Shown one piece after another: positions 13,254 through 30,643 of a DNA stretch of 37,877 bases. The position numbers were made by a program, and so were the translations under genes. Location: the sequence record SRR31156797_7382; one strand, given 5' to 3'. The stretch's first letter is position 1; every line of letters starts with the position of its first letter. The notes beneath the pieces are model-generated. The model saw only the letters and a list, made by a program, of their open reading frames with translations, did not search any database and had not been told where the DNA came from.

Positions 13254-15449
13254 ATGAAGCGTTTGTCAAAGAAAAAGATCATTCTTCTATCAATTTTTAT
13301 CATTCTATTTTTCTTTCTGTTTTTTCTCTCATCTATAGTGAAATCCTATGTTGTAAATAACTCTATGAAATTAACTGGCAGAAAGTTAGAGATGTCAGAA
13401 TTGCATTTTAACTATGTTAAAGTATCTGCACGTATAAAAGGATTGAAGCTTTTTGAGCAAGATGCATCGAATGAGTTTGTTTCGTTCAATGAGTTGTATG
13501 TAAATGTTTCTCCCTGGAAATTGATATCTGGAGAATATGCTGTATCCCAAATTTATCTTGATGGATTAAATGTATCGGTAATTCAGGATAGTATTGGCTT
13601 TAATTTTGATGATTTAATAACTTCAGATGAAACTACAATAGTAGACAGTACAACAATAGATGAAGAAAAATCTGATTTGAAATTTGCAATTCATGATATC
13701 AAGTTTTCAAATGGATACATTGTTTATCAGGATATAGAAAAGAGCAATAAACTGGATCTGAATAATATAAATTTGGAATTGCCTTTGATTGCCTGGAACA
13801 ATAAGAAATCAGAAATGGGTGTCAATTTTTCTTTAGGTAAAGAAGGTAATGTTTCGATTAGTGCAGATGTTGATCATTCTATAGAAAGATATTTTATCGA
13901 TTTAGGAGTAAGTTCTCTCGATATTAGTCCTTTTGTAGCTTATTTAAAGGATTATATGCATGTTTCAGAAATGCGGGGCAAATTGAATTCTCAGATTAAA
14001 ATTGAGGGAAGCATGGTTGATTTTATGGATGTTTATTTAAAAGGTAAAGTTCAAATGAACGATTTTGTTTTAAAAGACACCGAAGGGAATAAATTTTTAG
14101 GCAGTCAATCTACTATGATAGAATTAGACTCAATGCATGTGGCTTCTTCTTATTACAAAATTGGAAAGATTGTTCTTACTAAACCTGAAATATATGCAGC
14201 TCTTTTTAAAGAGAAAAGCAATTTTGAATCGATATTTGCTCCGGTTATGGAAGTGGATTCTGTAAATATTGCGATAGATACATTAGAAAAAAAAGAAGAG
14301 AGTGAATTGTTTTATTCTATTGATAGTTTAATTGTTGAAAATGGTTTTGTTGAGTTTGCCGATCATACTCTGAATCGAAAATTTATTTATGATATTAATG
14401 ATATCCAATTGAATATTGGAAGAATAACAGACAAAGCTAACGAAATTCCATTGAACTATTCCATTGACTTAAATGGAGGGGGATATTCAGAAGGAAATGT
14501 AATATTTAGTCTTAAGGATGTCCATAATTTTAAATTTGATGGAACTTTAGATCGACTTGATTTAACGAGTTTTTCACCTTATACTGAATTCTATATTGCC
14601 AGACCGATAAAACAGGGAGAATTCAATTACGATTGTAGTATTGTAATGAAGCCAAAAAAGTTAATCAATACCAATAAAATTAACATTTCGGAATTTGATT
14701 TTGGTGATAAAACTAACGATCCAAATACGATAAAGGCTCCGGTTCGTTTGGCTTTGTATCTGTTGAAGGATAAGAACGATCAGATTAATTTTGACTTGCC
14801 TGTTTCGGGAAATCCTAACTCTCCTGATTTTAAGCTGGGTAAAATTATTTGGAAAACATTAATGAATTTTCTTGTGAAAACAGCTGCAAAACCTTTCGGT
14901 ATATTAGGAAATTTAGCTGGAACCAACCCAGAAAGCATTGAGAAGATGCCATTTGAAATTGCTCAGGATAAGTTAAGTGATAATGAAAAATTAACGCTAA
15001 ATAAGATTGCTACGATCCTTACTAAAAAGCCTGAATTGAAATTTACATTCACGCAAGAGACCAATATAGATGATGAAAAGAAAATGATAGCATTGAGAGA
15101 ATGTGCATCCAAATATTTTGAAAGTCGAGCATTGCCAAAAAAATATTTAATTGGTAATGAGCTTTTAAATTGGACAAATTCGACAATTGAATTTCAAAAT
15201 TTTATTACAAAGGACAGCACGGATCTTGACTTATCTATTGAAGAAAAATGCATTGGTTTTATCGGAAATGAAAAATTAACCGGTTATACAGATTCCATAT
15301 TGCTAAATAGAAATAATGAGGTAAGAGTTTATTTGAAAGATAGTTTGAATGTTTCAAATCAAAATTTCGAAGTAAGAACTGCTGATTTGAGAAATCTCTC
15401 GGAACAACAAAGAAAACCAAAGTACAGAGTTGAAGTATCTTTGAAGTAA
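13254..15449 (+). CDS. DUF748 / AsmA-like envelope protein
   Basis: N-terminal TM, FNFDDL, L..FSPY, PVRLALYLLKD....I.FDLPVSG....PDF, TA.KPF motifs. Confidence 0.8.
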   Translation: MKRLSKKKIILLSIFIILFFFLFFLSSIVKSYVVNNSMKLTGRKLEMSELHFNYVKVSARIKGLKLFEQDASNEFVSFNELYVNVSPWKLISGEYAVSQIYLDGLNVSVIQDSIGFNFDDLITSDETTIVDSTTIDEEKSDLKFAIHDIKFSNGYIVYQDIEKSNKLDLNNINLELPLIAWNNKKSEMGVNFSLGKEGNVSISADVDHSIERYFIDLGVSSLDISPFVAYLKDYMHVSEMRGKLNSQIKIEGSMVDFMDVYLKGKVQMNDFVLKDTEGNKFLGSQSTMIELDSMHVASSYYKIGKIVLTKPEIYAALFKEKSNFESIFAPVMEVDSVNIAIDTLEKKEESELFYSIDSLIVENGFVEFADHTLNRKFIYDINDIQLNIGRITDKANEIPLNYSIDLNGGGYSEGNVIFSLKDVHNFKFDGTLDRLDLTSFSPYTEFYIARPIKQGEFNYDCSIVMKPKKLINTNKINISEFDFGDKTNDPNTIKAPVRLALYLLKDKNDQINFDLPVSGNPNSPDFKLGKIIWKTLMNFLVKTAAKPFGILGNLAGTNPESIEKMPFEIAQDKLSDNEKLTLNKIATILTKKPELKFTFTQETNIDDEKKMIALRECASKYFESRALPKKYLIGNELLNWTNSTIEFQNFITKDSTDLDLSIEEKCIGFIGNEKLTGYTDSILLNRNNEVRVYLKDSLNVSNQNFEVRTADLRNLSEQQRKPKYRVEVSLK

Positions 15450-15505
15450 TCTAAAAAAAAGAATAATAGCTGAGAAAGATCATTTAATTTATAGCTTTTA
15501 CAAAG

Positions 15506-15540
15506 TATCTTGTAAAACTATGTGTTTTTTTATATGTTTG
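15506..15540 (+). promoter_or_regulatory. padR promoter with overlapping 19-bp operator
   Basis: TATCTTGTAAAACTATGTG (15506-15524) covers the TTG -33 element; TATGTTTG -7 box at 15533-15540. Confidence 0.7.
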
Positions 15541-15547
15541 TTAAACC

Positions 15548-15901
15548 ATGAATCAAGAAATAAACGAATATTTTATAACCAAATGGAAATCCCAGTTTAA
15601 GAAGGGACTTTTGGAATATATTATCTTGTTATTGTTAAGATCTAAACCGTGTTACGGTTATGAATTAATTAGCGAGATGAATCAATTTACATCCCTCGAA
15701 ATTGCTGAAGGAACCATTTATCCTCTTTTAAATAGATTGAAAAAGGAGAAACTGGTAACTTCGGAATGGGCAGAAATGGATACTGGTATTCCAAGAAAAT
15801 ACTATAAACTTACCGATGAGGGGATTTCGCATCTTGCAGTGATGCGAGAATATGTTGATTCTTTAAATCTATCTATTAAGAGAATAGAAGAAAGTGTTTA
15901 A
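15548..15901 (+). CDS. PadR-family transcriptional regulator
   Basis: KG.LE..IL.LL....YGYEL, EGTIYPLLNRL, W......PRKYY.LT..G. Confidence 0.95.
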   Translation: MNQEINEYFITKWKSQFKKGLLEYIILLLLRSKPCYGYELISEMNQFTSLEIAEGTIYPLLNRLKKEKLVTSEWAEMDTGIPRKYYKLTDEGISHLAVMREYVDSLNLSIKRIEESV

Positions 15902-15932
15902 GAATTTTGAAAAATCTAATAATTACCAGGGA

Positions 15933-17429
15933 ATGAAAGATTATATTTTATCCTTAGATCAGGGAACTTCAATTTCAAAGGCAATTTTATTTAATAAAAA
16001 AGGTGAAATAGTTGCCCAAGTTCAAAAGGAGTATGAACAGTATTATCCTAAGCCTGGTTGGATCGAGCAGGATGCTAAGGAAATATGGTATTCACAAGCT
16101 TCAGTTGCTGAAGAGGTGCTTGCCAAAGCGGGTTTAACTGGTAAGGATATTGCAGGATTGGGAATCACAAATCAACGTGAAACTACAATTATCTGGGATA
16201 GGGAAACAGGTGAACCAATCAATAATGCGATTGTTTGGCAGGACAGAAGAACTTCTCATATTTGTGACGATTTAAAAGGGAAGGGATTCTCTAAAAAAAT
16301 AAAAGAAAAAACTGGTTTAATTTTAGATGCTTTTTTCTCAGCAACTAAAATAAAATGGCTTCTTGATAATATTGAAGGAGTCAGAGAGAAAGCTGAACAA
16401 GGCAAATTGGCTTTTGGAACCGTTGATAGCTGGTTAATTTGGAAACTTACCAAAGGTGAAGTTCATGTTACAGATGTTTCCAATGCCAGTAGAACCATGC
16501 TCTATAATATTCATGATCTTTGTTGGGATGAAGAATTATTAGAGTTAATGGACATTCCTAAATCCATTCTTCCAAAAGTTTGTTCTTCTAGTGAAATTTA
16601 TGGATACACTAAAAGATCTATGTTTAGTGAAGAGATTCCGATTTCCGGAATTTGTGGCGATCAGCAAGCAGCACTATTTGGTCAGGCTTGTTTTGAAAAA
16701 GGTATGGTTAAAAATACCTACAATACTGGTTGCTTTATGTTGATGAATACGGGGACCGAACCAGTTGAGTCGAAAAATGATTTGATAACAACAATAGCAT
16801 GGGGAATTGGAGATAAGGTTACCTACGCTTTAGAAGGAAGTGTATTTATTGGAGGTGCTGTTGTTCAATGGTTGCGCGATAGTTTAAATCTGATTCATTC
16901 AATTGAAGAAATTGAATCGCTCGCTTTAACCGAAAAGGATAATGGAGGTGTGTATATCGTTCCTTCATTTACAGGCTTGGGAGCACCTTATTGGGATCAG
17001 TATGCCAGAGGAACCTTTTGGGGCTTAAATATGGGAACTAGTGCAGGTCATATTGCACGTGCCTCATTAGAATGTATTGCTCATCGTTCTTCAGATGTAC
17101 TAAAAACAATGGAGGCTGATTCTGGTATTAAAGTAGAACAGTTAAGAGGTGGAGGCTTAATGGCCAATGATACTTTATTGCAATATCAAGCTGATTTTCT
17201 GAATTTGCCTATTGTTAGACCTGAAATTAAGGAAATTACTGCTGTTGGAGCAGCTTATTTAGCCGGATTAGGTGTTGGTTTTTGGAATAGTGTTGAGGAG
17301 ATTCAAGATCATTGGAAACTTGATAAGGAGTACGATGTTAAAATGGATAAGGAAATTGTTAAGCATCATAAGAAATATTGGGAAAAGGCTGTAAGTCGAT
17401 CACAAAATTGGATAGATGCTGACGATTAA
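15933..17429 (+). CDS. Glycerol kinase paralog (FGGY) with degenerate ATP-binding motifs
   Basis: Keeps TNQRETT, WQDRRT, GDQQAA but has DQGTSISK, YNTGCF and LRGGG in place of [14 protein letters not shown] and LRVDGG; ATG 15933 (GTG 15894 possible). Confidence 0.85.
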   Translation: MKDYILSLDQGTSISKAILFNKKGEIVAQVQKEYEQYYPKPGWIEQDAKEIWYSQASVAEEVLAKAGLTGKDIAGLGITNQRETTIIWDRETGEPINNAIVWQDRRTSHICDDLKGKGFSKKIKEKTGLILDAFFSATKIKWLLDNIEGVREKAEQGKLAFGTVDSWLIWKLTKGEVHVTDVSNASRTMLYNIHDLCWDEELLELMDIPKSILPKVCSSSEIYGYTKRSMFSEEIPISGICGDQQAALFGQACFEKGMVKNTYNTGCFMLMNTGTEPVESKNDLITTIAWGIGDKVTYALEGSVFIGGAVVQWLRDSLNLIHSIEEIESLALTEKDNGGVYIVPSFTGLGAPYWDQYARGTFWGLNMGTSAGHIARASLECIAHRSSDVLKTMEADSGIKVEQLRGGGLMANDTLLQYQADFLNLPIVRPEIKEITAVGAAYLAGLGVGFWNSVEEIQDHWKLDKEYDVKMDKEIVKHHKKYWEKAVSRSQNWIDADD

Positions 17430-17450
17430 AAAAGTATATTTTTAGTATTT

Positions 17451-17486
17451 AAAAGGTTATTTCACAATTGGAATAACCTTTTTTTT
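17451..17486 (+). terminator. Terminator of the padR-glpK-like unit
   Basis: AAAAGGTTATT / AATAACCTTTT followed by a T-run. Confidence 0.8.
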
Positions 17487-17545
17487 ATTTGTAAATCACT
17501 GATAATGGATTTGTTAATGTATTTTTTTAGAATAGTTATAAATAG

Positions 17546-17596
17546 TATCTTTTTTTACTATGCACATTGTATTGCTAAGTATTTTATTTAGATTTG
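17546..17596 (+). promoter_or_regulatory. glpT-operon promoter with operator(s)
   Basis: CACATTGTATTGCTAAGTA (17563-17581), weaker copy at 17546-17564; TAGATTTG -7 box at 17589-17596, 19 nt after TTG. Confidence 0.75.
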
Positions 17597-17639
17597 CCAT
17601 TGTTCTTAAGGATTAAGATAATCTATAGATGGTTAACTT

Positions 17640-17669
17640 ATCTCTTAAGCATTATTAGAGATTTTTTTT
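17640..17669 (+). terminator. Leader terminator-like hairpin upstream of glpT
   Basis: ATCTCT...AGAGAT stem followed by T8; weak, but at the same position as the glpD leader terminator. Confidence 0.5.
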
Positions 17670-17677
17670 ACAACACA

Positions 17678-17696
17678 TACATAGTTAAACAATGTG
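17678..17696 (-). promoter_or_regulatory. Downstream operator copy (inverted), glpT leader
   Basis: TACATAGTTAAACAATGTG; reverse complement CACATTGTTTAACTATGTA fits the operator consensus. Confidence 0.7.
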
Positions 17697-17728
17697 TTGT
17701 GCAATAAGATTTACATTCCAATACTACT

Positions 17729-17875
17729 ATGAAAGATGTCAAACTTGATGAACAGCTAGAGGATCGTTTATACTTTTTTTTCTCGAAAATTCTTGATTTA
17801 CAAAAGCAAGTAAAATTAAAAGAAAAGAATGTTGAGTATAGCAGTATTTGGGAGTTTTGGGATGGTGAATTATAA
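17729..17875 (+). CDS. Unannotated 48-aa small protein MKDVKLDEQLEDRLYFFFSKILDLQKQVKLKEKNVEYSSIWEFWDGEL
   Basis: Paralog of 22414..22557 (21/48 identical, synonymous codon changes, same stop position). Confidence 0.8.
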   Translation: MKDVKLDEQLEDRLYFFFSKILDLQKQVKLKEKNVEYSSIWEFWDGEL

Positions 17876-17937
17876 GTAGCTTCTATCGGATAGATTGAGA
17901 ATGATCAAAATTACAATAACCATTAATTTTTATTAAT

Positions 17938-19275
17938 ATGATCGGATTTTTAAAGCCAGCTCCTCATAAGGAGTTGATGCCTGAGGATAATGTTGACTCT
18001 GCATACAAACGATTGCGATGGCAAGTGTTTGTTGGTATATTCTTAGGGTATGCAGGTTATTACCTTGTACGAAAGGTTTTCTCATTGGCAATGCCTGATT
18101 TAGTGAATTTAGGATATTCAAAAACTCAATTGGGATTTGCTTTATCGGGAGTTTCCATTGCATATGGATTAAGTAAGTTCATTATGGGGAATGTCTCAGA
18201 TAGGAGTAATGCACGTAGGTTTCTAACTCTTGGATTAGTTCTTTCTGCAATTACTATGATAGTTATGGGAGTTTTGCCTGTGGCTACATCTTCAATTGCG
18301 ATAATGTTTGTTCTATTATTGATGAATGGATGGTTTCAAGGAATGGGATGGCCTCCTTGTGGACGTGTAATGGTTCATTGGTTTTCCATTCGTGAAAGAG
18401 GAACTAAAATGTCAATTTGGAATGTTGCTCACAATGTAGGTGGAGGTATTATTGGTCCTTTAGCTATTTTGGGTGTTGCCATTTTTGTTGATTGGCAAGC
18501 AAAACTATACTTTCCTGGTATAGTTGCTTTAGTAGTTGCCTTTATAGCATGGCTTTTAATACGTGATACACCACAATCTTGCGGTTTACCAAATATCGAA
18601 AAATATAAGGATGATTATCCTGAATCTTATTCGGAGAAGTTTGAGAAGGAAATGACTGCAAAACAAATATTCCTTGAATATATTCTTAAGAACAGACTTT
18701 TATGGATGATTGCAATAGCGAATGCTTTCGTTTATTTAGTGCGTTACGGTGTGCTAGATTGGGCTCCTCTATATTTAGAAGAGGCTAAAGGTTTTTCAAT
18801 TGAAGAGACGGGATGGGCCTATTTCGCATATGAGTGGGCAGGAATACCAGGAACATTACTTTGTGGATATTTAAGTGATACTGTTTTTAAAGGAAAACGT
18901 GCTCCTGTAAGTATCATTTATATGGTTTTTGTAACTATTTCAGTATTCATGTACTGGATAAGTGATTCTATTGTTGCGAATTCTATTGCATTGGTTTGTA
19001 TAGGTTTCTTGATCTATGGACCTGTAATGTTAATAGGTGTACATGCTCTTGATTTGGTTCCGAAAAAAGCAGCAGGAACTGCTGCAGGACTAACAGGCTT
19101 ATTTGGCTATATGGGAGGAGCGTTGTTTGCAAATATAGCGATGGGTGCTGTTGTGGATAAATGGAGTTGGTCAGGTGGTTTCATTGTTCTTTTAGCGGCT
19201 TGTGTAATGTCAATACTCTTTATAGCTATTTCATGGTTACAAGAGTTGAGAGGTCATAACGGAATTCATCATTAG
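17938..19275 (+). CDS. glpT: Glycerol-3-phosphate:phosphate antiporter (MFS)
   Basis: GIFLGYAGYYLVRK, WFQGMGWPPC, WN.AHNVGG, YL.RYGVLDW, GTAAG.TGLFGY. Confidence 0.96.
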   Translation: MIGFLKPAPHKELMPEDNVDSAYKRLRWQVFVGIFLGYAGYYLVRKVFSLAMPDLVNLGYSKTQLGFALSGVSIAYGLSKFIMGNVSDRSNARRFLTLGLVLSAITMIVMGVLPVATSSIAIMFVLLLMNGWFQGMGWPPCGRVMVHWFSIRERGTKMSIWNVAHNVGGGIIGPLAILGVAIFVDWQAKLYFPGIVALVVAFIAWLLIRDTPQSCGLPNIEKYKDDYPESYSEKFEKEMTAKQIFLEYILKNRLLWMIAIANAFVYLVRYGVLDWAPLYLEEAKGFSIEETGWAYFAYEWAGIPGTLLCGYLSDTVFKGKRAPVSIIYMVFVTISVFMYWISDSIVANSIALVCIGFLIYGPVMLIGVHALDLVPKKAAGTAAGLTGLFGYMGGALFANIAMGAVVDKWSWSGGFIVLLAACVMSILFIAISWLQELRGHNGIHH

Positions 19276-19328
19276 TATAAAAATTAACTACTTATTGAAA
19301 ATATAATTTAACCTAGAAAAACAGTAAT

Positions 19329-20639
19329 ATGAAAAAAATTAATCTAAAAAACCTATTATTTGGTGCAGTAGCTTTGTGCAGTGTAGGCTTGGTTGGGTGT
19401 GAAGATGATACTCCTGATTACAATGAATTTAATTACTACAAAACGTATCCTTTGAAAGAACTTAGTGCTGAAGCTAAAGCGGTAAGAGATTATGTGAAAA
19501 GTGATATTGTTATTGCACATAGAGGTTCAACGTTTTGGGCTCCTGAAGAAACCGAAGCGGCTTTCCGTTGGGCTAGAAATATGGGTGCTGATTACCTTGA
19601 GATTGATTTGCAAAGAACTAAAGATGGTGTATTATTAGCACTTCATGATAATAACTTGAGAAGAACATCTAATATTGAGAGTATGTTCCCAGGAAAAGAA
19701 GATTATCCTGTTAGTTATTTTACTTTAGCTGAATTGAGAAAGCTTGATGCTGGTGCTTGGTTTAATGTTGATGTGCCAGAGAACGCAAGAGAATCATTTG
19801 TTGGAGAGAAAATTTCTACTCTTGAAGAGGTGTTGAAAATTGCTGAAGGATATAGAATTCTTAGAGATGTAAATGGAGAGCCAGTTAAAGATATGACAAA
19901 ACTTACTGAAGCAGGTGAGTGGGCTGGATATTATGAATTTGAAGTTGATCCTCAGGATAATGGAAATCGTCCAGGTGTATACGCCGAGACAAAAGAACCA
20001 TATTTATTTTCTGGAATGGAAGCTGATTTGGCAACTTTCTTAACTGCTGAAGGATGGAATGTAACTTCTTCTCCAAAAGTTATTCCTACAATTGCAGGTA
20101 AAGTTGATGTAGCGAATACAAATGGTCGTTTTATTTTGCAATCATTCTCTAGACAATCAATTGTTAACCTTGAAAAGGAATTGCCAGGTGTGCCTAAGTG
20201 TATGTTGTTATGGGAAGATGAAAGTGCATCTTATGTAAGACCTTCTAATACAATTGAGTCTTTGGCTGAGTTTATCAATTTCTCTGTAGAATATAACTGT
20301 CATATTGCAGGTCCTTCAATCGAAGGTAAACCAAATGGTTACCCAGATCTTACTGAGCCTTGGATGTGTGAAATGTACCACAGAGCAGGAATGCTTGTAC
20401 ATGCTTATTCATTTGATACTGAAGATCAGTTAAGAAAGTATAATGGAGATTACTTTTATGGTGGTGTATCTCGTTTCGATGATCCTAATAGAACTGTACA
20501 AGGAAACTTTAATTATGATGTAAATCCAAATATGTTTATCGATGGTGGATTTACTAATCTTACAGACCTTTCTATGAATTACCAGAAGCGTGAAGTAGTT
20601 GGAACTGCTCAAGAAGTGTTGGACGCTTTAGGTTATTAA
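19329..20639 (+). CDS. glpQ: Glycerophosphodiester phosphodiesterase lipoprotein (GlpQ-like)
   Basis: Lipobox LVGC; IAHRG, E.D...TKDG....HD, QSF motifs; follows glpT. Confidence 0.88.
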   Translation: MKKINLKNLLFGAVALCSVGLVGCEDDTPDYNEFNYYKTYPLKELSAEAKAVRDYVKSDIVIAHRGSTFWAPEETEAAFRWARNMGADYLEIDLQRTKDGVLLALHDNNLRRTSNIESMFPGKEDYPVSYFTLAELRKLDAGAWFNVDVPENARESFVGEKISTLEEVLKIAEGYRILRDVNGEPVKDMTKLTEAGEWAGYYEFEVDPQDNGNRPGVYAETKEPYLFSGMEADLATFLTAEGWNVTSSPKVIPTIAGKVDVANTNGRFILQSFSRQSIVNLEKELPGVPKCMLLWEDESASYVRPSNTIESLAEFINFSVEYNCHIAGPSIEGKPNGYPDLTEPWMCEMYHRAGMLVHAYSFDTEDQLRKYNGDYFYGGVSRFDDPNRTVQGNFNYDVNPNMFIDGGFTNLTDLSMNYQKREVVGTAQEVLDALGY

Positions 20640-20675
20640 TCAATTTCTATTTACAAATTATTAAGCAAAAGTAAT

Positions 20676-22016
20676 ATGTTTAAAAAATTATATATAGCTG
20701 CCTTATTAACGGGAGTGCTAGCATCAGGGGCAAATGCTCAGGAAAATGAAATATCAGTTGAAAATCCAAATGGAGGAATTAAATTAACTTCTGCTGATAA
20801 AGAATATCAAGTAAGTATAAATGGTAGAATTTATATGGATGGTGTTCACTATTTTGATGATGTAACTGATTTAAGTTCGGATGTATCTGTTAGTGATATT
20901 CGCTTTGGAACAAGTGTGAGATGGGGAAAATGGAGTGCTAAGGTAAACGTTGGCTTTGGTAATGATGAGGTGAAAATTAAAGATGCATTCTTAAGATATC
21001 ACCATAAAAAGAATAGCACTTTTACTGTTGGTAATTTCTTTGAGCCATTTGGAATTGAGGCGGCAGAGTCAAGTAAAAACTTAAGATTTATTGGTTCCTC
21101 TAATACAACTCAATCAATGGGTATTGGTCGTGGAGTTGGTTTGGGATATACGTACTACACTCAAAAATTCTATGGTTCAACTGGTATTTTTGCAGGAACA
21201 GTTGATAATAATAGTAAAGGTGATCAAGGATTTTCTACTACTTCGAAAGTTGCATATACTCCGATTCAAAATGAAGATTTTGTATTCCAAGTTGGAGGAT
21301 CGTTTACTTACAGAAAGCCAGAAGCTAATGGTTTTAACGAAAGCTTCAACGATGATGATTACAATCGTGTAGTTGAATTCGCAGCGGGTCCTGAGCACAA
21401 ATTCTTAAACGCTACCATGAATGGTGCGCAGTCTGATATGAGGTTTAATTTCCAAACATTAGCATTAAAGGGTTCATTTATGTTGCAAGCAGAGTATACT
21501 CAAGCTAAAGTAACTCGTGATGATGATTATGTGTCAAAATTAATGAAAGATGGTCCATTGTATTACGTTACTTATGCATGGCCTGTAGCTCCTAAAGATT
21601 ATCCTGATTGGTATGGTGAGCTTCGTGATATAGAAACAAAAGCTTACTATGTACAAGCTGGATTTTTACTAGGCGATGATTATAAATATAACTCATCAAC
21701 TGCATATATTAAGAGACCTAAAGCTGGTGCTTTCGAATTTCTTGTACGTTACGATCATACAGATTTAAATGATGTTGATGGAACTTATTTTAATGGTAGC
21801 TATGGTCCTGCAGATTTAAATGCTGCGTTGGGTGGCGCTGGTAATATGAGTGTTCAAGGAGGAAAAGCTGATACCTATAGCTTAGCTGTAAATTACTATT
21901 TAAGCTCTAATGTAATGTTTCGTTTGAATTATGACTATATGGATGTTGATAATCAAAAATATCCTTTAGATAAGAATATCGGAGTATTAAAAGGACGAAT
22001 TCAAGTTAACTTTTAG
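20676..22016 (+). CDS. OprO/OprP-like (phosphate-selective) porin
   Basis: Signal peptide, GRIYMD, IKDAFL, G.F.EPFG.E, QAEY, terminal R.QVNF. Confidence 0.8.
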   Translation: MFKKLYIAALLTGVLASGANAQENEISVENPNGGIKLTSADKEYQVSINGRIYMDGVHYFDDVTDLSSDVSVSDIRFGTSVRWGKWSAKVNVGFGNDEVKIKDAFLRYHHKKNSTFTVGNFFEPFGIEAAESSKNLRFIGSSNTTQSMGIGRGVGLGYTYYTQKFYGSTGIFAGTVDNNSKGDQGFSTTSKVAYTPIQNEDFVFQVGGSFTYRKPEANGFNESFNDDDYNRVVEFAAGPEHKFLNATMNGAQSDMRFNFQTLALKGSFMLQAEYTQAKVTRDDDYVSKLMKDGPLYYVTYAWPVAPKDYPDWYGELRDIETKAYYVQAGFLLGDDYKYNSSTAYIKRPKAGAFEFLVRYDHTDLNDVDGTYFNGSYGPADLNAALGGAGNMSVQGGKADTYSLAVNYYLSSNVMFRLNYDYMDVDNQKYPLDKNIGVLKGRIQVNF

Positions 22017-22041
22017 TACCTTAATAAATAATGATATAATT

Positions 22042-22075
22042 GACTGGCTTGCCTAATTGGTGAGTCAGTTTTTTT
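22042..22075 (+). terminator. Terminator of glpT-glpQ-porin
   Basis: GACTGGCTTGCC-TAATT-GGTGAGTCAGTT followed by a T-run. Confidence 0.8.
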
Positions 22076-22243
22076 ATAATATTGCATCAAGAAGTTAAAT
22101 AAATACAAAATTAAATGATTTTAATTTACTCGATTATTATAAATTAAAATAGAAATTACTTTAGCTGTAAGTCAATAAATATTGGGAATCTGGAGTTTAT
22201 GGAGTTTTTAGACTAAATTAAAACAATACTTTTCTTTGCCTAG

Positions 22244-22277
22244 CACCTTGCATTACTAAGTAATTTATTTAGCTTTG
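22244..22277 (+). promoter_or_regulatory. glpD promoter with overlapping operator
   Basis: CACCTTGCATTACTAAGTA (22244-22262); TAGCTTTG -7 box at 22270-22277; aligns without gaps to the glpT promoter. Confidence 0.75.
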
Positions 22278-22331
22278 TATTGTTCGAGTTTATAATTAGA
22301 AATTGATTTATTCAAACTAGCTTATAAAACG

Positions 22332-22357
22332 ATTGGAAGAAAGCTTCCAATTTTTTT
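22332..22357 (+). terminator. Leader terminator upstream of glpD
   Basis: Perfect ATTGGAAG-AAAG-CTTCCAAT hairpin followed by a T-tract. Confidence 0.7.
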
Positions 22358-22365
22358 GATAGAAC

Positions 22366-22384
22366 TACATAGCAATACAAAGTG
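22366..22384 (-). promoter_or_regulatory. Downstream operator copy (inverted), glpD leader
   Basis: TACATAGCAATACAAAGTG; reverse complement CACTTTGTATTGCTATGTA is 17/19 identical to the glpT promoter site. Confidence 0.75.
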
Positions 22385-22413
22385 CTGTGTATTCACATTT
22401 ATTTTTTACTGCT

Positions 22414-22557
22414 ATGGAAGACATGAAATTTGATATGCAAATGGAAAATCGCCTTTATTCTTTTTTCTTAGACCTTTTGGCCGGACAAAATGATAAGCTT
22501 GTTCAAGAAGATGAACAAAATGGAAGTATCTGGAAATACTGGGAAGAGGAATTATAA
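22414..22557 (+). CDS. Unannotated 47-aa small protein MEDMKFDMQMENRLYSFFLDLLAGQNDKLVQEDEQNGSIWKYWEEEL
   Basis: Paralog of 17729..17875; shared RLYxFF and SIWxxWxxEL-stop. Confidence 0.8.
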   Translation: MEDMKFDMQMENRLYSFFLDLLAGQNDKLVQEDEQNGSIWKYWEEEL

Positions 22558-22596
22558 GCGATAATACAAACGTGGTTTATTACAAAGAGAAATAAG

Positions 22597-24144
22597 ATGT
22601 ATAGAGAGGTTGAAAGTGTAAAACAGAAATGGGATGTGATCATTGTAGGTGGTGGAGCGTCAGGCTTGGGAGCAGCTATTGAGTCGGTAACTCGTGGATA
22701 CAAAACACTACTTCTGGAGCAGGATGATTTTGCTAAAGGAACTTCGAGTAGAAGTACCAAGCTTGTTCATGGTGGCGTTCGTTATCTTGCTCAGGGAAAT
22801 ATATCATTGGTTTTGGAAGCTTTAAGAGAAAGAGGTTTGTTAAAGCAAAATGCACCTCACTTGGTAAAAGATCAATCATTTATTATTCCTAATTATACAT
22901 GGTGGGGAACACCTTACTATACTTTAGGTTTAACAATGTACGACCTAATGGCTGGGAAATTAGGTTACGGGCGATCATTGCCTTTCTCTAAAAAAAGAAC
23001 GCTAAAGCATATTCCTACACTAAAAAGCGAAAATCTTTGTGGTGGAGTTGTTTATCACGATGGACAATTTGATGATTCCAGATTGGCAATTAATATGTGT
23101 CAAACTTTTGTAGAAAATGGTGGAGTTGCTATCAACTACATGAAGGTTGAAGGATTTGAAAAGAAGAATGGAAAAATTTCAGCAGTGAAAGCTACTGATT
23201 TGGAGAGTGGAACAAAATATACGATAGAAGGTAAAGTAGTTTTGAATGCAACGGGAGTTTTTGTTGATAAAGTTATCAAAATGGACGAACCTAAAGCAAA
23301 AGACATCGTAAAGGTCAGTCAAGGTGTACATTTGGTTTTAGATAAGGAATTTGTGCCGGGAGATTATGCAGTGATGATTCCTAAAACCAGTGACGGTCGT
23401 GTTCTTTTTGCTGTGCCATGGCATAACAAAGTTGTTGTAGGAACCACCGATGTACACAAAGATTGTGCAGAACTAGAACCTAGAGCGTTGGAAGAGGAAG
23501 TTGATTTTATTTTAGAGACTGCGGGTAGATTCTTATCAAAACCTCCTAAAAGATCAGATGTAAGAAGCGTATTTGCTGGTTTAAGACCATTGGCAGCACC
23601 AAGTGGCGATGGTAAAAAAACAAAGGAAATATCTAGAGGACATAAGATAGTTGTTTCCGATTCGGGAATGGTAACCTTAACTGGTGGTAAATGGACTACT
23701 TACCGTCAAATGGCAGAAGATGTAATGAATACTGTTGCCAAAACAGCAGGATTACAAGAGAAGAAGTCACAAACAAGAAATCTAAAAATTCATGGATATA
23801 AGCTAAATCCAGATTTAAGCAATCCCATGTATTTCTATGGCTCCGATGAAGAGAAGATTTTAGATTTAGCTAAAAAAGAAGATGGTTTGGATGAGTATTT
23901 AAGCTCAAAGCTAAAAGTGCTGAATGCACAAGTGGTTTGGGGAGCTAGATATGAAATGGCCAGAACCGTTGAAGATATATTATCTAGAAGAACACGTTCA
24001 TTACTTCTTGATGCTAAGGAGAGTATAGAGATGGCTCCAAAGGTAGCGGAATTAATGGCTAAGGAATTAGGATACGATAAACAATGGGAAGAGAATCAAG
24101 TAAAGGAATACAAAAACTTGGCCTCTCGATACATTTTGATATAA
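22597..24144 (+). CDS. glpD: FAD-dependent glycerol-3-phosphate dehydrogenase/oxidase
   Basis: GGGASG, GTSSRSTKLVHGGVRYL, DGQFDDSRL, AGLRPL, GGKWTTYR.MAE. Confidence 0.95.
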   Translation: MYREVESVKQKWDVIIVGGGASGLGAAIESVTRGYKTLLLEQDDFAKGTSSRSTKLVHGGVRYLAQGNISLVLEALRERGLLKQNAPHLVKDQSFIIPNYTWWGTPYYTLGLTMYDLMAGKLGYGRSLPFSKKRTLKHIPTLKSENLCGGVVYHDGQFDDSRLAINMCQTFVENGGVAINYMKVEGFEKKNGKISAVKATDLESGTKYTIEGKVVLNATGVFVDKVIKMDEPKAKDIVKVSQGVHLVLDKEFVPGDYAVMIPKTSDGRVLFAVPWHNKVVVGTTDVHKDCAELEPRALEEEVDFILETAGRFLSKPPKRSDVRSVFAGLRPLAAPSGDGKKTKEISRGHKIVVSDSGMVTLTGGKWTTYRQMAEDVMNTVAKTAGLQEKKSQTRNLKIHGYKLNPDLSNPMYFYGSDEEKILDLAKKEDGLDEYLSSKLKVLNAQVVWGARYEMARTVEDILSRRTRSLLLDAKESIEMAPKVAELMAKELGYDKQWEENQVKEYKNLASRYILI

Positions 24145-24415
24145 GAGATTATTTGTAGGACGAATTGAGTAAAGAATTTATTAAAGGTAGTTCTTAGTCT
24201 GTTATTTATAACTACTGATTTTATTAATTGTTACAATATTATTAATCAATTTGTTAGTTTTGGCACGAAATTACTTTGCACAATCGTCCTACTTTTTGCT
24301 CCTGAAGGATAAGTGATCATGCAAATCACAGTCTTCATATACAACTAACCAAGAACTCTTGAAATAGGAGTTGGTAATTTTTAATCTTTACGATTAAAAA
24401 AATTTATCTCGCTTT

Positions 24416-24429
24416 TGCAATCGTTTACA
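24416..24429. promoter_or_regulatory. LacI/cre-like palindrome upstream of glpK
   Basis: TGCAATCGTTTACA fits TGnAAnCGnTTnCA. Confidence 0.45.
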
Positions 24430-24505
24430 ATTGGTAAATCTTAGCAAAAATGAGTTCGGAAAGAGAGTATTTTAATTAACACTATAACCCAAATTAATTA
24501 GAAGT

Positions 24506-26005
24506 ATGGAAGACAAGTTTATTTTAGCTTTAGACCAGGGAACTACAAGTTCCAGAGCAATCGTTTTCAATAAGAAGGGCGAGATGATAAGCACGGCGCA
24601 GAAAGAATTCACCCAAATTTTTCCACAGCCGGGCTGGGTAGAGCATGATGCAAACGAAATTTGGTTTACGCAAGCTGGAGTTGCTGCAGAAGCAATTACA
24701 CATGCAGGAGCTAATGGAAAGAGTATTGCGGGGATTGGTATCACTAACCAGAGAGAGACTACTGTTGTATGGGATCGTGAGACAAGTGAACCAATTTATA
24801 ATGCAATTGTGTGGCAGGATCGTCGTACGTCTAAGTATTGTGATGAGTTAAAGACTCAGGGACATGCTGATATGATTCAGGATAAAACAGGTTTAATTAT
24901 CGACTCGTATTTTTCTGGAACAAAAGTAAAGTGGATTCTTGATAATGTAGAAGGAGCTCGCGAAAAAGCAAAGGCAGGAAAATTGGCTTTTGGTACTATT
25001 GATAGCTGGCTAATCTGGAAATTAACTCAAGGTAAAGTGCATGTAACTGATGTTACTAATGCAAGTAGAACTTTACTTTATAACATCAAAACCTTAGAGT
25101 GGGATACTGAAATGTTAGAACTTCTTGATATTCCTGAAAGTATGTTACCAGAGGTTAAATCTTCTTCAGAAGTATACGGACATACTGTAACCACTTTATT
25201 TGCTCACGAGGTACCTATTGCTGGTATTGCAGGTGATCAGCAAGCAGCTACATTCGGTCAAATGTGTATTAAACCAGGATCGGTTAAAAATACTTACGGA
25301 ACAGGATGTTTCATGCTATGTAATACAGGTAATAAGCCAGTAAAATCGAACAACAATTTGTTAACAACTATTGGTTGGCAAATTAATGGCGAAACTACTT
25401 ACTGTCTTGAAGGAAGTATTTTCATGGGAGGCGCAATTGTACAGTGGTTACGCGATGGTTTAGGAATTATTAAATCATCTCCTGAGGTTGAAGAACTAGC
25501 AGGTTCGGTTGAAGATAACGGAGGTGTATTCCTGGTTCCTGCACTTACAGGTTTAGGAGCTCCACATTGGGATCAGTATGCAAGAGGAACAATTGTAGGA
25601 TTGACAAGAGGTGCAACTTCAGCACACATCGCAAGAGCAGCATTGGAAGGTATCGCATTCCAGACTATGGATGTATTGAAAGCAATGGAAGCAGATGCAG
25701 GAATTAAGATTAACGAACTTCGTGTTGATGGTGGTGCTGCAATTAATAACCTATTAATGCAATTCCAGTCGGATGTATTGGATGCTCCGGTTTACAGACC
25801 AAAAACTCTTGAAACAACTGCATTAGGTGCTGCATATTTAGCAGGTTTGGCAGTTGGATATTGGGATAGTATAGATGATATAAAGAGCCAGTGGGCAATG
25901 GATCGTAAGTTTGAGCCAGAAATGCCTAAAGAAAAATCTGAGAAATTGATTAAAGGTTGGGACAAAGCCCTAGGTCGTTCAAAAGATTGGGATACTGAAG
26001 CTTAA
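24506..26005 (+). CDS. glpK: Glycerol kinase
   Basis: All canonical motifs: [45 protein letters not shown]. Confidence 0.97.
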
Positions 26006-26033
26006 TTTTCAACATCTAATATATTTTTAAACC

Positions 26034-26084
26034 AATGCCGGAATATGGAGAAGAAGGAATGGATGAAGACAGAATTCCGGCATT
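26034..26084. repeat. 11-bp perfect inverted repeat between glpK and glpF
   Basis: AATGCCGGAAT ... ATTCCGGCATT around a 29-nt purine-rich loop. Confidence 0.8.
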
Positions 26085-26120
26085 CTTTTATTAACAATTA
26101 CTAAATAAAACCATATTATC

Positions 26121-26855
26121 ATGAGTGAATTTGTTGCAGAATTTATAGGAACCATGTTACTGATATTATTAGGTAACGGAGTAGTTGCAAATGTTGTATT
26201 GAATAAAACAAAAGGAAACAATAGCGGTTGGATCGTAATCACAATGGGGTGGGGATTGGCCGTATTTACAGGTGTTGCAGTTGCAGGTCCTGTTTCAGGA
26301 GCTCACATTAACCCTGCCGTAACTATTGGATTGGCATTAGCAGGTATGTTTGCCTGGTCAAAAGTAGGTCTTTTTATAGCGGCTCAAATGTTAGGAGCAG
26401 CTATGGGTGCATTCCTTGTTTGGTTAATGTATCGCGATCATTTTAATTCTACTGAAGATGGTGGAGCTAAATTGGCTTGTTTCTCTACAGGTCCAGCTAT
26501 CAGAAACATTGGAAGTAACGCAATTAGTGAGGTTATTGGTGCTTTTGTATTGATGTTCGTTATCTTTTATTTGGCTGGTCCTTCTCTTGAAGCTGCTGGA
26601 ATGGAAGGTGCTAAAATTGGATTAGGAACTTTAGGTGCTTTACCTGTTGCCTTATTGGTTGTTGCTATTGGTCTTTCGTTAGGCGGAACTACTGGATATG
26701 CAATTAATCCTGCTAGAGACTTAGGTCCAAGAATCATGCATGCTATTCTACCTATGCAAAATAAAGGTACAAGCGACTGGGCGTATTCATTGGTGCCTAT
26801 CGTTGCTCCAATTGTAGGAACTGCCATTGCAGCATTCTTATTTATGTATCTATAA
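26121..26855 (+). CDS. glpF: Glycerol uptake facilitator (aquaglyceroporin)
   Basis: SGAHINPAVT and GYAINPARDLGPR (NPA-R-D) motifs. Confidence 0.96.
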   Translation: MSEFVAEFIGTMLLILLGNGVVANVVLNKTKGNNSGWIVITMGWGLAVFTGVAVAGPVSGAHINPAVTIGLALAGMFAWSKVGLFIAAQMLGAAMGAFLVWLMYRDHFNSTEDGGAKLACFSTGPAIRNIGSNAISEVIGAFVLMFVIFYLAGPSLEAAGMEGAKIGLGTLGALPVALLVVAIGLSLGGTTGYAINPARDLGPRIMHAILPMQNKGTSDWAYSLVPIVAPIVGTAIAAFLFMYL

Positions 26856-26884
26856 ACTTATTGAACCACTACATTTTAAACATA

Positions 26885-26925
26885 CTGTAGAGATTTAGTA
26901 GATTAAATCTCCTGGATCTCTACAG
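26885..26925. repeat. Long intercistronic hairpin after glpF
   Basis: CTGTAGAGATTTAG...CTGGATCTCTACAG with inner AGATT/AATCT; no T-tract after it. Confidence 0.75.
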
Positions 26926-26943
26926 CCCAAAAATTTGAATCTA

Positions 26944-27666
26944 ATGAAAAAATCAGTCCTAAAAATATCGTTATTATTTGCATTGATAATCATATTTGCA
27001 TCAAATATGAATGTAAATGCACAAGGAAAAGTAACAGTTAGTCCATCGGTAACTACTCGTCATTATTGGAGGGGTATTATGGTAAGTAATACAGCTAATT
27101 TTGAAATGGATTTAGCTTACACTAACAATAATTTTACATTCGGAGCCTGGGGTGGATATGCATTTGACAACACCTACTCAGAGTTCGATTTCCATGTAGG
27201 ATATAAGTTTAGTGATCATTTTAATGTTGCAGTTTGGGATTTATTTGCAAATCGCGACAGAGCTTCTATTGACGATTACAACTATCTTGATTTAGACAGA
27301 AGTACAACAAATCACTTGATAGATGCGAGTTTAAATTTTTACGTTAATGAGAAATTTCCATTAAGTGTTTGTGTAAGTACTATGCTTTACGGACGCGATT
27401 TGGATGAGAATGGTGATCAAAACTATTCAACTTACGTGGAATTTGGATATCCTGTTAAAATAGGTGGAGAAACAGTTTCTCTATTTGCAGGTTTAAATGC
27501 TTTCGAAGATCAAGTATATGGAGAGAGCTTTGGTTTTGTAAATATTGGAGCTACTGCTACAAGAGAAATCAAGATTAATGATAACTTTTCTTTAAATGCA
27601 TGGGCTAAGATTGGTATTAACCCACAGGCAGAAACTGCTAACCTAATTTTGGGTATTGGTTTCTAA
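26944..27666 (+). CDS. Outer-membrane beta-barrel protein (TorF-like putative porin)
   Basis: Signal peptide, Y.WRG, G.WG, E.D..VGY, STYVE.GY, terminal Phe. Confidence 0.7.
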   Translation: MKKSVLKISLLFALIIIFASNMNVNAQGKVTVSPSVTTRHYWRGIMVSNTANFEMDLAYTNNNFTFGAWGGYAFDNTYSEFDFHVGYKFSDHFNVAVWDLFANRDRASIDDYNYLDLDRSTTNHLIDASLNFYVNEKFPLSVCVSTMLYGRDLDENGDQNYSTYVEFGYPVKIGGETVSLFAGLNAFEDQVYGESFGFVNIGATATREIKINDNFSLNAWAKIGINPQAETANLILGIGF

Positions 27667-28742: not shown

Positions 28743-29318
28743 TTGAGAACCACTTTGGAAAACCAAAAATTAGAAAAGATTATAAAAGATTGCTCGAAAG
28801 GAAAGTCTAAAGCACAAGAGTTTCTTTACAAGGAGTATGCCCCAAAAATGCTTGGGGTTTGTCTGCGGTATTCCAATAATTTAGTGGAGGCTGAAGATAC
28901 TTTGCAAGATGGTTTTATCAAGATGTTTCAAAGTATAAAAACATATAAATTTAAAGGTTCTTTTGAAGGTTGGGTACGTCGTATAATGGTAAATACTGCT
29001 TTAGAGAAATTTAGAAAATCGAAGCATATTCAGGTAGTGGATGAGGTTTGGGAAGATGAAATTGATACTGAAGAACAGTCAATAACAGAAGACATACCAT
29101 TGAATATGCTACTGGAATTGATACAGAATTTACCCGATAGGTATCAAATGGTATTTAGTTTATACGTTCTTGATGGATATTCTCACAATGAAATTGCTGA
29201 GGTGATGAATATTACGGTTGGCACATCTAAATCGAATTTAGCCAGAGGTAGGGCGATATTAAAACAAAAAGTGAATGAGTATTTGAATGAAAATGAAAAC
29301 AAACTGAAAATATGCTAG
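28743..29318 (+). CDS. ECF RNA polymerase sigma factor
   Basis: AQEFLY, AED.LQDGFIK, GSFEGW.RRI.VN, LP..Y..VF.L...DGYSH.EIA, GTSKSNL.R; TTG start at 28743 or 28755. Confidence 0.95.
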   Translation: MRTTLENQKLEKIIKDCSKGKSKAQEFLYKEYAPKMLGVCLRYSNNLVEAEDTLQDGFIKMFQSIKTYKFKGSFEGWVRRIMVNTALEKFRKSKHIQVVDEVWEDEIDTEEQSITEDIPLNMLLELIQNLPDRYQMVFSLYVLDGYSHNEIAEVMNITVGTSKSNLARGRAILKQKVNEYLNENENKLKIC

Positions 29319-30643
29319 ACGAAAACAAACATATTGATAGTCTGTTTGCAGATAGATTGAAAGGATTGAGTGTTGAGCCGAATCCTGAGGTTTGGAATGC
29401 AATTAATGGAAAGATGCTTGCAAAACGAAGAAAGAAGATGTTAGTAATCTACATTTCAACAGGAATTGCAGCCGCTATTCTTCTATTATTCAGTATCACA
29501 AATCAAGCACTTTTTGATGTTAACACTAATGCAATACAATTTGAGCAAATAAGTGCTAATACTAAAACGGATTCTGAGAATACGATAGAAAATGACAATC
29601 AAGAATTTAATACACAAAATATAGAAACACAAAATACGAAGAGTACAGATCTGAATAATACTATTTCCAAGCTTGAATCGAACGTATCAAAATCGAATGT
29701 TCTTATAGTTCGAGAATCAAAGGCAGTTTCAATTCCAAAAGAATCTATTATTGATGCAATTCCTATAGGGTTTAGTCGATTGTTTACTCGCGATAAAGAT
29801 TCGTCTCAGGAGCTACAATACAATTTAGCACAAAAGGTTGATCCAGTAGTTCTTTTGGCAGATGAATTGCAAATAAAAGCCAATTTAATGTTATTGGAGC
29901 AAGAAGCAAAAGAAGTACTGAAAGAGAACAGATGGTCAATATTGGGACAAGTATCTTCTGCATATTCTAATGAAACTTCTGCAGAGAGTGCTGCAAGTGG
30001 TATTGTAAGTTTTGGAGGTGGAGTTAAAGTTAATTATGCATTGGGAAAAAAACTTGCTCTTCAAACAGGTTTCTTATATAATAGTTTTGGGCAAGATTTA
30101 AGCAGTGGTGGTGGTCAGGAAATGTTATTTTACGATGCGAATTTAACTGGAGAATCAGGATCGACTTTTGATGGATCTAATCGTAGAAAAGTTTTCCCAG
30201 CTTCAACATCAGCAGGAGCAATTAAATTTTCAAATCATTCATCACAAGTTGAAAATAGTGAGTATGTAAGTTCTTCTTATTCATCATCGAATATAATGCA
30301 GAACTTTGAAACAATAGAAGTGCCATTTATTTTACGATACAGCTTAACTCAAAAAAGGTTAGGGGTTTTTGTAAGCGGTGGGTTAGGTGCTAATTTTATT
30401 GTTGCTAATGGTGTATATGATACCTCAGGATCGAAGCGTAAGATTGGTGAGATCGAGAATTTACGTACTACAAATTTTAGCTCTTTAGTTGGTTTAGGAT
30501 TTGAATACAAACTGAACTCAAAACTACAAATAGGTGTTGAACCGACATTTAAGTACTATTTGAATTCTATAAATAAGAGTAGTGAATTTGATTATAAACC
30601 ATACTCAATAGGAATTCTTACCGGAATTAGATATAATTTTTAA
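29312..30643 (+). CDS. Putative anti-sigma factor with TM helix, disordered linker and C-terminal outer-membrane beta-barrel
   Basis: Overlaps the sigma stop codon; ID.LF...L......P...VW..I N-terminus, TM, N/T/S/E-rich linker, barrel ending G.RYNF. Confidence 0.8.
   Translation: MLDENKHIDSLFADRLKGLSVEPNPEVWNAINGKMLAKRRKKMLVIYISTGIAAAILLLFSITNQALFDVNTNAIQFEQISANTKTDSENTIENDNQEFNTQNIETQNTKSTDLNNTISKLESNVSKSNVLIVRESKAVSIPKESIIDAIPIGFSRLFTRDKDSSQELQYNLAQKVDPVVLLADELQIKANLMLLEQEAKEVLKENRWSILGQVSSAYSNETSAESAASGIVSFGGGVKVNYALGKKLALQTGFLYNSFGQDLSSGGGQEMLFYDANLTGESGSTFDGSNRRKVFPASTSAGAIKFSNHSSQVENSEYVSSSYSSSNIMQNFETIEVPFILRYSLTQKRLGVFVSGGLGANFIVANGVYDTSGSKRKIGEIENLRTTNFSSLVGLGFEYKLNSKLQIGVEPTFKYYLNSINKSSEFDYKPYSIGILTGIRYNF

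Follow-up and report, generated by a model that had tools for sequence, protein, structure and literature searches.

The regulation of glycerol use has two textbook solutions, a DeoR-type repressor and the GlpP antiterminator. In E. coli, the glp regulon is repressed by GlpR, a member of the DeoR family that is induced by glycerol-3-phosphate (G3P), which binds the repressor directly. In Bacillus subtilis, GlpP acts by antitermination at the leader terminators of glpD, glpFK and glpTQ. Here we describe a glp locus at positions 15,506 to 24,144 of SRR31156797_7382, a 37,877-nucleotide stretch of DNA (hereafter the window) from a marine member of the Bacteroidales; it matches the uncultured Marinifilum contig L001, whose PadR is 100% identical. 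In this locus, the gene for a small PadR-family regulator is followed directly by a paralog of the glycerol kinase gene, and a single operator word occurs both at promoters and behind terminators. Throughout, glpK2 is our own label for the glycerol-kinase paralog directly 3' of padR. Judged from its conservation across genomes, this is a real, conserved glp regulatory module of the Marinifilaceae and of some related Bacteroidales. We consider it slightly better than an even bet, with a probability of about 0.55, that the glp regulon of Marinifilum and its relatives is run by a PadR repressor with gated terminators and an input from GlpK2.

The locus resembles the GlpR system of E. coli in that one autoregulated repressor would have sites at several glp operons (glpT, glpD, glpFK), and differs from it in that the protein is a 117-aa PadR, coupled to a kinase paralog, with an operator copy behind a terminator. 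As in the GlpP system, intrinsic terminators lie in the glp leaders and read-through would be the regulated step; the conserved element here, however, is a DNA palindrome past the terminator and not a site in the leader RNA. Two further systems offer partial parallels. One is the yeast Gal3p-Gal80p-Gal4p switch, in which, as outlined in PMC3048525 and PMC7556753, GAL1 and GAL3 arose from a bifunctional kinase/co-inducer. Like Gal3p, GlpK2 is a paralog of a pathway kinase that was kept with a regulator while the canonical kinase catalyses, and its changes are concentrated in the catalytic/nucleotide site; unlike Gal3p, it keeps the catalytic Asp, and it would act on a putative bacterial repressor with operators instead of an activator-inhibitor pair. 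LftR-LftS of Listeria is described in outline in PMC4517056 as a PadR-family regulator with a co-transcribed partner. Here too, a short padR gene and a partner gene form one operon, and the nearest solved relatives are PadR proteins of about 110 aa, but the partner is an FGGY sugar kinase paralog of full length, and the regulon belongs to central carbon catabolism.

The + strand from 15.5 to 26.9 kb encodes, in order, padR, glpK2, a 48-aa open reading frame (ORF), glpT, a phosphodiesterase, a porin, a 47-aa ORF, glpD, glpK and glpF. The features are as follows.

15510..15540, +, padR promoter, which contains the operator word: -33 TTG at 15510-15512, TTGTAAAACTATGTGTTTT, -7 box TATGTTTG at 15533-15540
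15548..15901, +, padR, 117 aa, short single-domain PadR-family regulator (PF03551 match)
15933..17429, +, glpK2, 498 aa, paralog of glycerol kinase whose ATP-binding motifs are altered
17451..17490, +, terminator of the padR-glpK2 unit (terminator-like hairpin 17451-17482)
17563..17596, +, promoter P1 of the glpT cassette: 19-bp motif 17567-17585; operator copy 17563-17580 covering the -33 TTG
17589-17596, +, -7 box TAGATTTG of this P1
17603..17669, +, glpT leader: AT-rich hairpin, then a T8 run at 17662-17669; weak intrinsic-terminator-like element
17679..17696, +, palindrome M2 (inverted operator copy) of the glpT cassette, beginning 9 nt past the T-run
17729..17875, +, small ORF A, 48 aa
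17938-19275, +, glpT
19329-20639, +, glycerophosphodiester phosphodiesterase gene
20676-22016, +, phosphate-selective porin O/P family protein gene
22244..22277, +, promoter P1 of the glpD cassette: 19-bp motif 22248-22266, -7 box TAGCTTTG at 22270-22277
22331..22357, +, glpD leader terminator: GGAAG/CTTCC hairpin and a T7 run
22367..22384, +, palindrome M2 of the glpD cassette, beginning 9 nt past the T-run
22414..22557, +, small ORF B, 47 aa (ATG 22414; the ORF listing starts at GTG 22387)
22597..24144, +, glpD, FAD-dependent glycerol-3-phosphate dehydrogenase
24506-26005, +, canonical glpK, with a separate candidate operator upstream
26121-26855, +, glpF

We found padR followed directly by glpK2 in all 18 genome loci whose PadR was at least 84% identical (two of them cut by a contig end inside glpK2); these belong to Marinifilum, Labilibaculum, Ancylomarina and one metagenome-assembled genome. 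Cultured carriers include Marinifilum flexuosum DSM 21950, M. fragile JCM 15579, and Labilibaculum and Ancylomarina species. The same adjacency was seen in three of three loci examined from a second genus (eight genomes with PadR 77-78% identical), in one genome with PadR 65-66% identical, in 11 of 11 metagenome loci with PadR of at least 62% identity and, when 401 genomes of the order were sampled, in three of six further genomes with PadR 50-66% identical (G224, G401 and G277; G and L numbers denote genomes and loci). No glp genes were near padR in 36 loci with PadR of at most 57% identity, and just one of 69 metagenome loci with PadR below 62%, L129, had glp genes nearby. Two genomes of the order with PadR 55-57% identical carried instead an ordinary PadR gene with a partner ORF of about 190 aa, presumably a DUF1700-type module. 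Exactly one canonical glpK and one glpK2 were present in each of five genomes tested.

The 19-bp motif TTGYAWWRCTAWGTRWTTT had three matches in the 37,877 bp (at 15510, 17567 and 22248), all at promoters, against a chance expectation of 0.01, and none of 100 shuffles reached three. This degenerate pattern was derived from the very three window sites that it matches, and its independent support therefore comes from conservation in other genomes. A palindrome, ACATAG-N5-CWAWGTG, lies downstream of each leader terminator (17679-17696 and 22367-22384), and an inverted copy with one mismatch lies inside the glpT promoter (17563-17580; 0.10 expected). The reverse complement of the palindrome (M2) is the promoter word (M1), so that both are copies of one operator word, TAC-yTTGyAwwrCTAnGTA, placed in two ways. 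At the padR promoter and at P1 of both the glpT and the glpD cassette, it lies across the -33 box; in the second setting, the inverted word TACATAGT-N3-ACwATGTA stands 8-9 nt past a terminator T-run with no canonical promoter behind it. At padR promoters, ATACyTTGyAwwrCTAnGTr and the -7 box were kept in all lineages examined, down to 50% PadR identity. In three whole genomes, M1 in its exact form was confined to glp cassettes, and M2 was found in glp cassettes, besides one terminator stem and one dispersed repeat. By these comparisons, the motif is specific to the glp loci of genomes with this PadR.

Several other occurrences of the word were noted. An extra perfect M2 in M. flexuosum (G002:C4:183766) was rejected as an operator, being the stem of an ordinary intergenic terminator. 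In Ancylomarina longa (G004), ACATAGTTGGACAATGT has seven copies outside the glp locus, on seven contigs, probably inside a dispersed repeat or mobile element. At L085 (6877-7046), the palindrome reads GCATCGTTATACGATGTA, a symmetric change of CATAG/CTATG to CATCG/CGATG, and the copy at the padR promoter retains CTATG. DNA looping with helical phasing between operator copies was also considered and rejected, the spacing being non-periodic.

Before glpT and glpD, a cassette of about 350 bp (promoter, leader terminator, palindrome, small ORF) is duplicated: 17524-17876 and 22205-22558 align end to end, and the repeat families D3 (73 nt, 74%) and D12 (39 nt, 74%) fall inside the copies. P1 is nearly invariant and canonical, with boxes TTG-N19-TAGATTTG for glpT and TTG-N19-TAGCTTTG for glpD. 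A simple terminator scan reported hairpins after glpK2, after the porin gene and in the glpD leader, and missed the one in the glpT leader. The sequence-only reading of the window had described one 19-bp motif at the three promoters and a cassette duplicated before glpT and glpD, both of which these counts and alignments bear out; its anatomy of promoter/operator, terminator and inverted operator is also correct, the last label because M2 is the reverse complement of the promoter word, and the arrangement is older than the window shows.

We then compared the palindrome copies across lineages. Of 31 copies, 26 have a run of five or more T that ends 8-9 nt ahead of the CATAG core; among the others, the distance is 6 nt once and 10 nt once, and three copies have no such run. 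The hairpin stems upstream of the T-runs are wholly different in sequence between lineages, with their complementarity preserved, and the leader sequence itself is not conserved. This fixed distance from T-run to site suggests that terminator and operator act as one device. CcpA, CodY and PurR sites inside transcription units are familiar cases of roadblock repression. As there, a DNA-bound repressor past the promoter is proposed here to stop the elongating polymerase; unlike there, the site keeps a fixed spacing to a terminator. The composite pattern T6-N7-10-CATAG-N5-CWAWGT was present in 26 of 30 family genomes with a PadR ortholog and in none of the 66 without one (96 genomes); all matches lay at glp contig positions, and the reversed control pattern gave 3 matches in total over the 96 genomes. 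Between the last M2 and the next gene, a full -33/-7 promoter was found at 0 of 32 sites and an exact -7 box at two. Spacing, co-occurrence and the missing promoter behind M2 together support the gate, and indicate that polymerases reading through from P1, or from the promoter of padR, transcribe the genes beyond it.

In G393, G401, G277, G224 and L086/L087, P1 is absent and the palindrome stands at the usual distance behind glpK2's own terminator, with glpD or glpK-glpF next after it. The padR-glpK2 module is older than the duplicated cassette, and the Marinifilum-type cassette would have originated by fusion of the padR promoter to the terminator and palindrome at the end of glpK2. Tandem palindromes were seen after glpK2 in L016 (12000-12250), L086 (3853-4080) and L087; in L086 and L087 both copies are preceded at 7-10 nt by a T-run of their own, and in L016 only the second copy has one. 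RNA contigs (Logan; four runs of one marine sediment study, X4 and X5 being one sample) gave short matches of 90-99% likeness to parts of glpK2 (16177-16993) and of the diesterase, porin, glpD, glpK and glpF genes; DNA carry-over is possible, and these contigs, which give no starts, ends or strand and do not bridge a leader, are uninformative on promoters and terminators.

The padR product matched PF03551 with 75.4 bits (Pfam gathering cut-off 27; E 3.6e-21). At 117 aa it is of the short form of the family, which has about 110 aa and one C-terminal helix: a profile of 17 orthologs matched 5h20_A (111 aa, E 9.5e-29) near full length, as well as other PadR chains of 98-131 aa over nearly their whole length. 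The segment AEGT[IL]YPLLNRLKK is almost invariant across the 17 orthologs and, as in other PadR structures, probably holds the recognition helix. From the quasi-palindrome that co-occurs with the gene, we infer that a PadR dimer binds a palindromic operator. The -33 element of Bacteroidota promoters is TTG. The padR promoter, TTG-N20-TATGTTTG, is of the Bacteroidota type, and the ATG lies 7 nt downstream of its -7 box. Sites at -33 and -7, the latter with the consensus TANNTTTGY, are the outline given for such promoters in PMC12632263. The layout of the padR promoter is kept in distant lineages. In every lineage examined the -7 box ends 7 nt before the ATG, and the padR mRNA is therefore probably leaderless or nearly so.

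GlpK2, an FGGY/GlpK protein of full length, shares 61% identity with the canonical GlpK (24506-26005), and against TIGR01311 it scored 705.4 bits, compared with 750.6 for the canonical enzyme and an equivalog cut-off of 590.35. We place its start at ATG 15933, 31 nt past the padR stop, because the N-terminus is conserved from there; the ORF listing gave GTG 15894. In all 20 Marinifilaceae copies, YGTGCF has become YNTGCF (G266N, in the phosphate-2 loop). The same 20 copies have lost the Asp of VDGGA, with the next Ala replaced by a bulkier residue, and carry TFWGLNMG for TIVGLTRG. At all these places, 13 canonical copies are invariant in the other state. The Tyr of xYFS is Phe in 15 of the 20. 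VDGGA, the adenosine motif, survives in none of the 23 copies next to padR but in all 15 canonical copies, and it was altered in three different ways: by the deletion, to VDGMP (G401 and G277) and to VDGSI (G224), the G224 copy (L071) carrying D245N and G12R in addition. The kinase copies that adjoin the padR-adjacent ones in G401 and G277 are canonical. Five of six further metagenomic copies show the Asp deletion, and the sixth (L085) gave no match to the search expression. The padR-adjacent copies retain NQRET (23/23), VWQD (23/23) and GDQQA with Asp245 (22/23), and GlpK2 of the window keeps the glycerol-binding and catalytic residues (NQRET, VWQD, the Asp of GDQQA and the Phe of GCF). G266, D245 and Y135 are presumed E. 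coli GlpK numbers, mapped by motif, and the residue roles are likewise presumed. A degenerate glpK paired with padR, under its own promoter and terminator, had been proposed from the window alone; the pair, the promoter and the terminator stand, while the word degenerate is partly right, since the protein passes the GlpK cut-off, keeps the catalytic Asp and has its changes confined to the ATP-binding motifs.

With a dN/dS of about 0.04, glpK2 is under strong purifying selection; its dN is 1.3-2.4 times that of canonical glpK in the same genome pairs, dS being near saturation. Synonymous divergence is also higher in glpK2 in the same pairs (pS 0.71-0.83 vs 0.52-0.71), which would fit lower expression and weaker codon bias. 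In the kinase tree, the Marinifilaceae GlpK2 clade also takes in the copies next to padR in G401 and G277 (support 96/99), the rooting depending on two long G224 branches without which the three groups form a trifurcation. At L071 (8904-12045) in G224, both kinase paralogs that neighbour padR are strongly altered, with the catalytic Asp changed to Asn in both and very long branches. A complex prediction of GlpK2 with two PadR chains, made from alignments of 17 orthologs each and without controls, scored 0.24 and 0.29, under the mark of 0.32, which speaks neither for nor against a complex.

Small ORFs A and B are 44% identical (E 2e-11), and in-frame dN/dS was 0.12-0.34 in nine of 11 pairs (two were saturated) vs 0.5-2.9 in the other frames. 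By this substitution pattern the small ORF is truly coding, and its product is a lineage-restricted protein. The family comprises 25 clusters at 90% identity, with 7 representatives among 1.84 billion proteins, and the clusters with a named source (7 of 25) are all Marinifilaceae, annotated 'hypothetical protein'. The ORF was found in 20 of 96 family genomes, every one a PadR carrier. Two motifs are conserved, RLYxFFxxhL and a C-terminal S[IL]WE[FY]WxxEL that is invariant and stands right before the stop codon; the linker between them varies, giving total lengths of 48-59 aa (47-59 aa with ORF B). An AlphaFold2 model has two helices (pLDDT 72), and searches of Pfam, NCBIfam, the Atlas and, by Foldseek, the PDB gave no family or match. 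A variant in the second genus shares the first motif only (hhalign 90.5% over 16 columns) and has no C-terminal motif. The glpT-side ORF is broken in M. fragile and Marinifilum sp. D714, with the rest of the cassette kept, the glpD-side ORF of D714 has a stop at codon 2, and some second-genus cassettes have no small ORF and retain the terminator and M2. Roughly one good copy is thus left per genome, which favours a trans-acting protein, an accessory encoded behind the gate, over a cis-acting leader peptide.

Searches for other regulators of the glp genes were largely negative. The sequence-only reading had raised a GlpR elsewhere in the genome; no DeoRC (PF00455) protein was found in three related genomes (G002, G003 and G004) by a search whose control matched 10 of 14 well-known genomes. 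GlpP (PF04309) gave partial hits below the cut-off in two of these three (24.1 and 22.6 bits vs 27; 41 of 173 profile positions), and an Rfam scan of 15000-27000 gave no match at E up to 1. Of the components whose co-occurrence had been proposed, padR, glpK2 and the motif do occur together, and some cassettes and genomes have a broken small ORF or none at all. In a literature search covering listings and the starts of abstracts, we found no paper pairing PadR with a glycerol kinase as regulators and no description of an FGGY pseudokinase sensor; in the part of the results covered by titles and abstract starts, no natural repressor-coupled terminator was described.

In the mechanism that we propose, PadR dimers over the -33 box would repress initiation at the padR promoter and at P1. 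PadR bound behind a terminator would stop RNA polymerase in or at the terminator, and read-through into glpT and glpD (glpK-glpF in other lineages) would occur only once PadR leaves. GlpK2 would most probably deliver the glycerol or G3P signal to PadR; padR and glpK2 appear to be co-transcribed upstream of the gate, and both would therefore be made at a basal level. Our preferred variant, held tentatively and at a little short of even odds, sees in GlpK2 a ligand sensor in contact with PadR, in the manner of Gal3p, an idea supported by the repeated decay of the adenine pocket and opposed by the kept catalytic Asp and by L129. A fuller joint reading strikes us as doubtful. In it, the locus would be a bacterial counterpart of the GAL switch joined to a new kind of attenuation, with a glpK paralog that lacks normal ATP binding as the sensor, a site 8-9 bp past the U-tract that makes termination conditional on a DNA-bound protein and not on RNA structure or a protein that binds RNA, and the small protein as feedback.

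A number of observations count against the proposed mechanism. The leader hairpins of the glpT type are AT-rich and weak. By the presumed footprint of RNA polymerase, a roadblock with its edge 7-9 nt past the U-tract would stall the enzyme early in the U-tract and not at the usual release point, which makes the physics of the gate uncertain. The two operator copies lie 77-96 nt apart (52-57 nt in the second genus) with no helical phasing, and the small ORF is not a constant part of the cassette. A pure sensor would have no need of a catalytic Asp or of the Asp for Mg and phosphate-1, and GlpK2 keeps both. Finally, L129, whose PadR is 50% identical and whose operator word is identical, has the order padR-glpK-glpD-glpF with no glpK2 and no gate, and its kinase is canonical and groups with the canonical copies of its lineage. 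PadR can thus apparently work without GlpK2, and GlpK2 may not be an obligatory sensor.

The main rival explanation concerns GlpK2 itself, which might be an active, low-level kinase kept in the regulator operon upstream of the gate, where it could turn glycerol into G3P at all times, the latter being the true inducer and binding PadR directly. Such an enzyme would be expected to retain Asp245, the Asp of DQGT and the residues of the glycerol pocket, as 22-23 of 23 copies do; the same holds for the strong purifying selection and a score above the curated GlpK cut-off, and L129 does combine padR with a canonical kinase. It is harder to reconcile with a VDGGA that was altered in three ways and survives in no padR-adjacent copy while being invariant in 15 canonical ones, with G266N in the phosphate-2 loop of all Marinifilaceae copies, with D245N and G12R in L071, and with the canonical kinase that was always present too in the five genomes tested; we regard a basal inducer-making kinase as possible and rather unlikely. 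Explanations that leave GlpK2 aside and reinterpret the palindrome, as part of a second promoter or of an RNA switch, are less likely. M2 could be a plain operator belonging to another, non-canonical promoter, P2, from which the small ORF and the glp genes would be expressed, P1 and the terminator then yielding a short RNA only or merely ending upstream transcription. In the Marinifilum/Labilibaculum clade a conserved nAnnTTTA word does lie at about the right distance past M2, and the T-run could serve as an upstream AT-rich element. That word is not there in the second genus or in distant lineages, however; the full -33/-7 promoter is missing behind M2 at all 32 sites (exact -7 box at two), and P1 is nearly invariant and canonical. 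A short RNA that acts in trans is unlikely, given the lack of conservation in the leader, and we consider a P2 promoter improbable overall.

Two further rivals place the control in the RNA or in its translation, and we give little credence to either. If the leader were a riboswitch or the target of a protein-dependent antiterminator, possibly the small protein, the DNA palindrome would be incidental; the leaders resemble the GlpP-controlled leader terminators of B. subtilis, and their hairpins show compensatory changes. Against this very unlikely explanation, there is no Rfam match, no conserved leader sequence and no alternative antiterminator pairing, GlpP has only the partial hits in two of three genomes, the halves of M2 fail to pair as RNA in several copies, the glpD copy of the window included, and the terminator and M2 are retained in cassettes from which the small ORF is absent. 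Slightly more improbable still is that the small ORF encodes a cis-acting leader peptide on which ribosomes stall at the conserved C-terminus and so control the next gene. The invariant S-I/L-W-E-F/Y-W-x-x-E-L immediately before the stop would suit stalling, but two Marinifilum genomes have a broken copy before glpT in an otherwise intact cassette, the ORF is absent from some second-genus cassettes and its second-genus variant has no such C-terminus, and its linker varies within a total length of 48 to 59 aa.

Some neighbouring features were also recorded. A LacI/CcpA-type palindrome, TGCAATCGTTTACA, lies at 24416-24429, about 90 nt upstream of canonical glpK, and is the sole match in the window. 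In 12 of 24 related loci checked, glpK is preceded by the same word or one almost identical to it, and two other loci have a match elsewhere only; a word resembling it lies about 80 nt upstream of padR in L016. The palindrome before glpK suggests a second regulator for glpK-glpF, perhaps for catabolite control. Downstream of glpF, at 26935-27666, is a 243-aa ORF without a Pfam family, and L068, of the second genus, has a 240-aa ORF with a signal-peptide-like start at the equivalent position after glpF. Further on, at 28743-30643, the gene for a 191-aa sigma factor of the ECF type runs into the beginning of a 443-aa ORF that has no Pfam family, an arrangement typical of sigma/anti-sigma pairs.

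The locus points to a third solution for the regulation of glycerol use, in a system that is compact and conserved in cultured strains. To our knowledge, the natural ligands and partners of much of the PadR family are unknown, and here a small PadR repressor seems to have acquired a metabolic-enzyme paralog as its signal input. If the gate is real, an operator at a fixed distance past a terminator would be a simple and portable form of protein-dependent termination. The kinase-paralog input and the operator-gated terminator would both be new if confirmed. Should GlpK2 turn out to be a normal enzyme and the palindrome a simple operator, the glp regulon of part of the Bacteroidales would still have been assigned a new regulator family.

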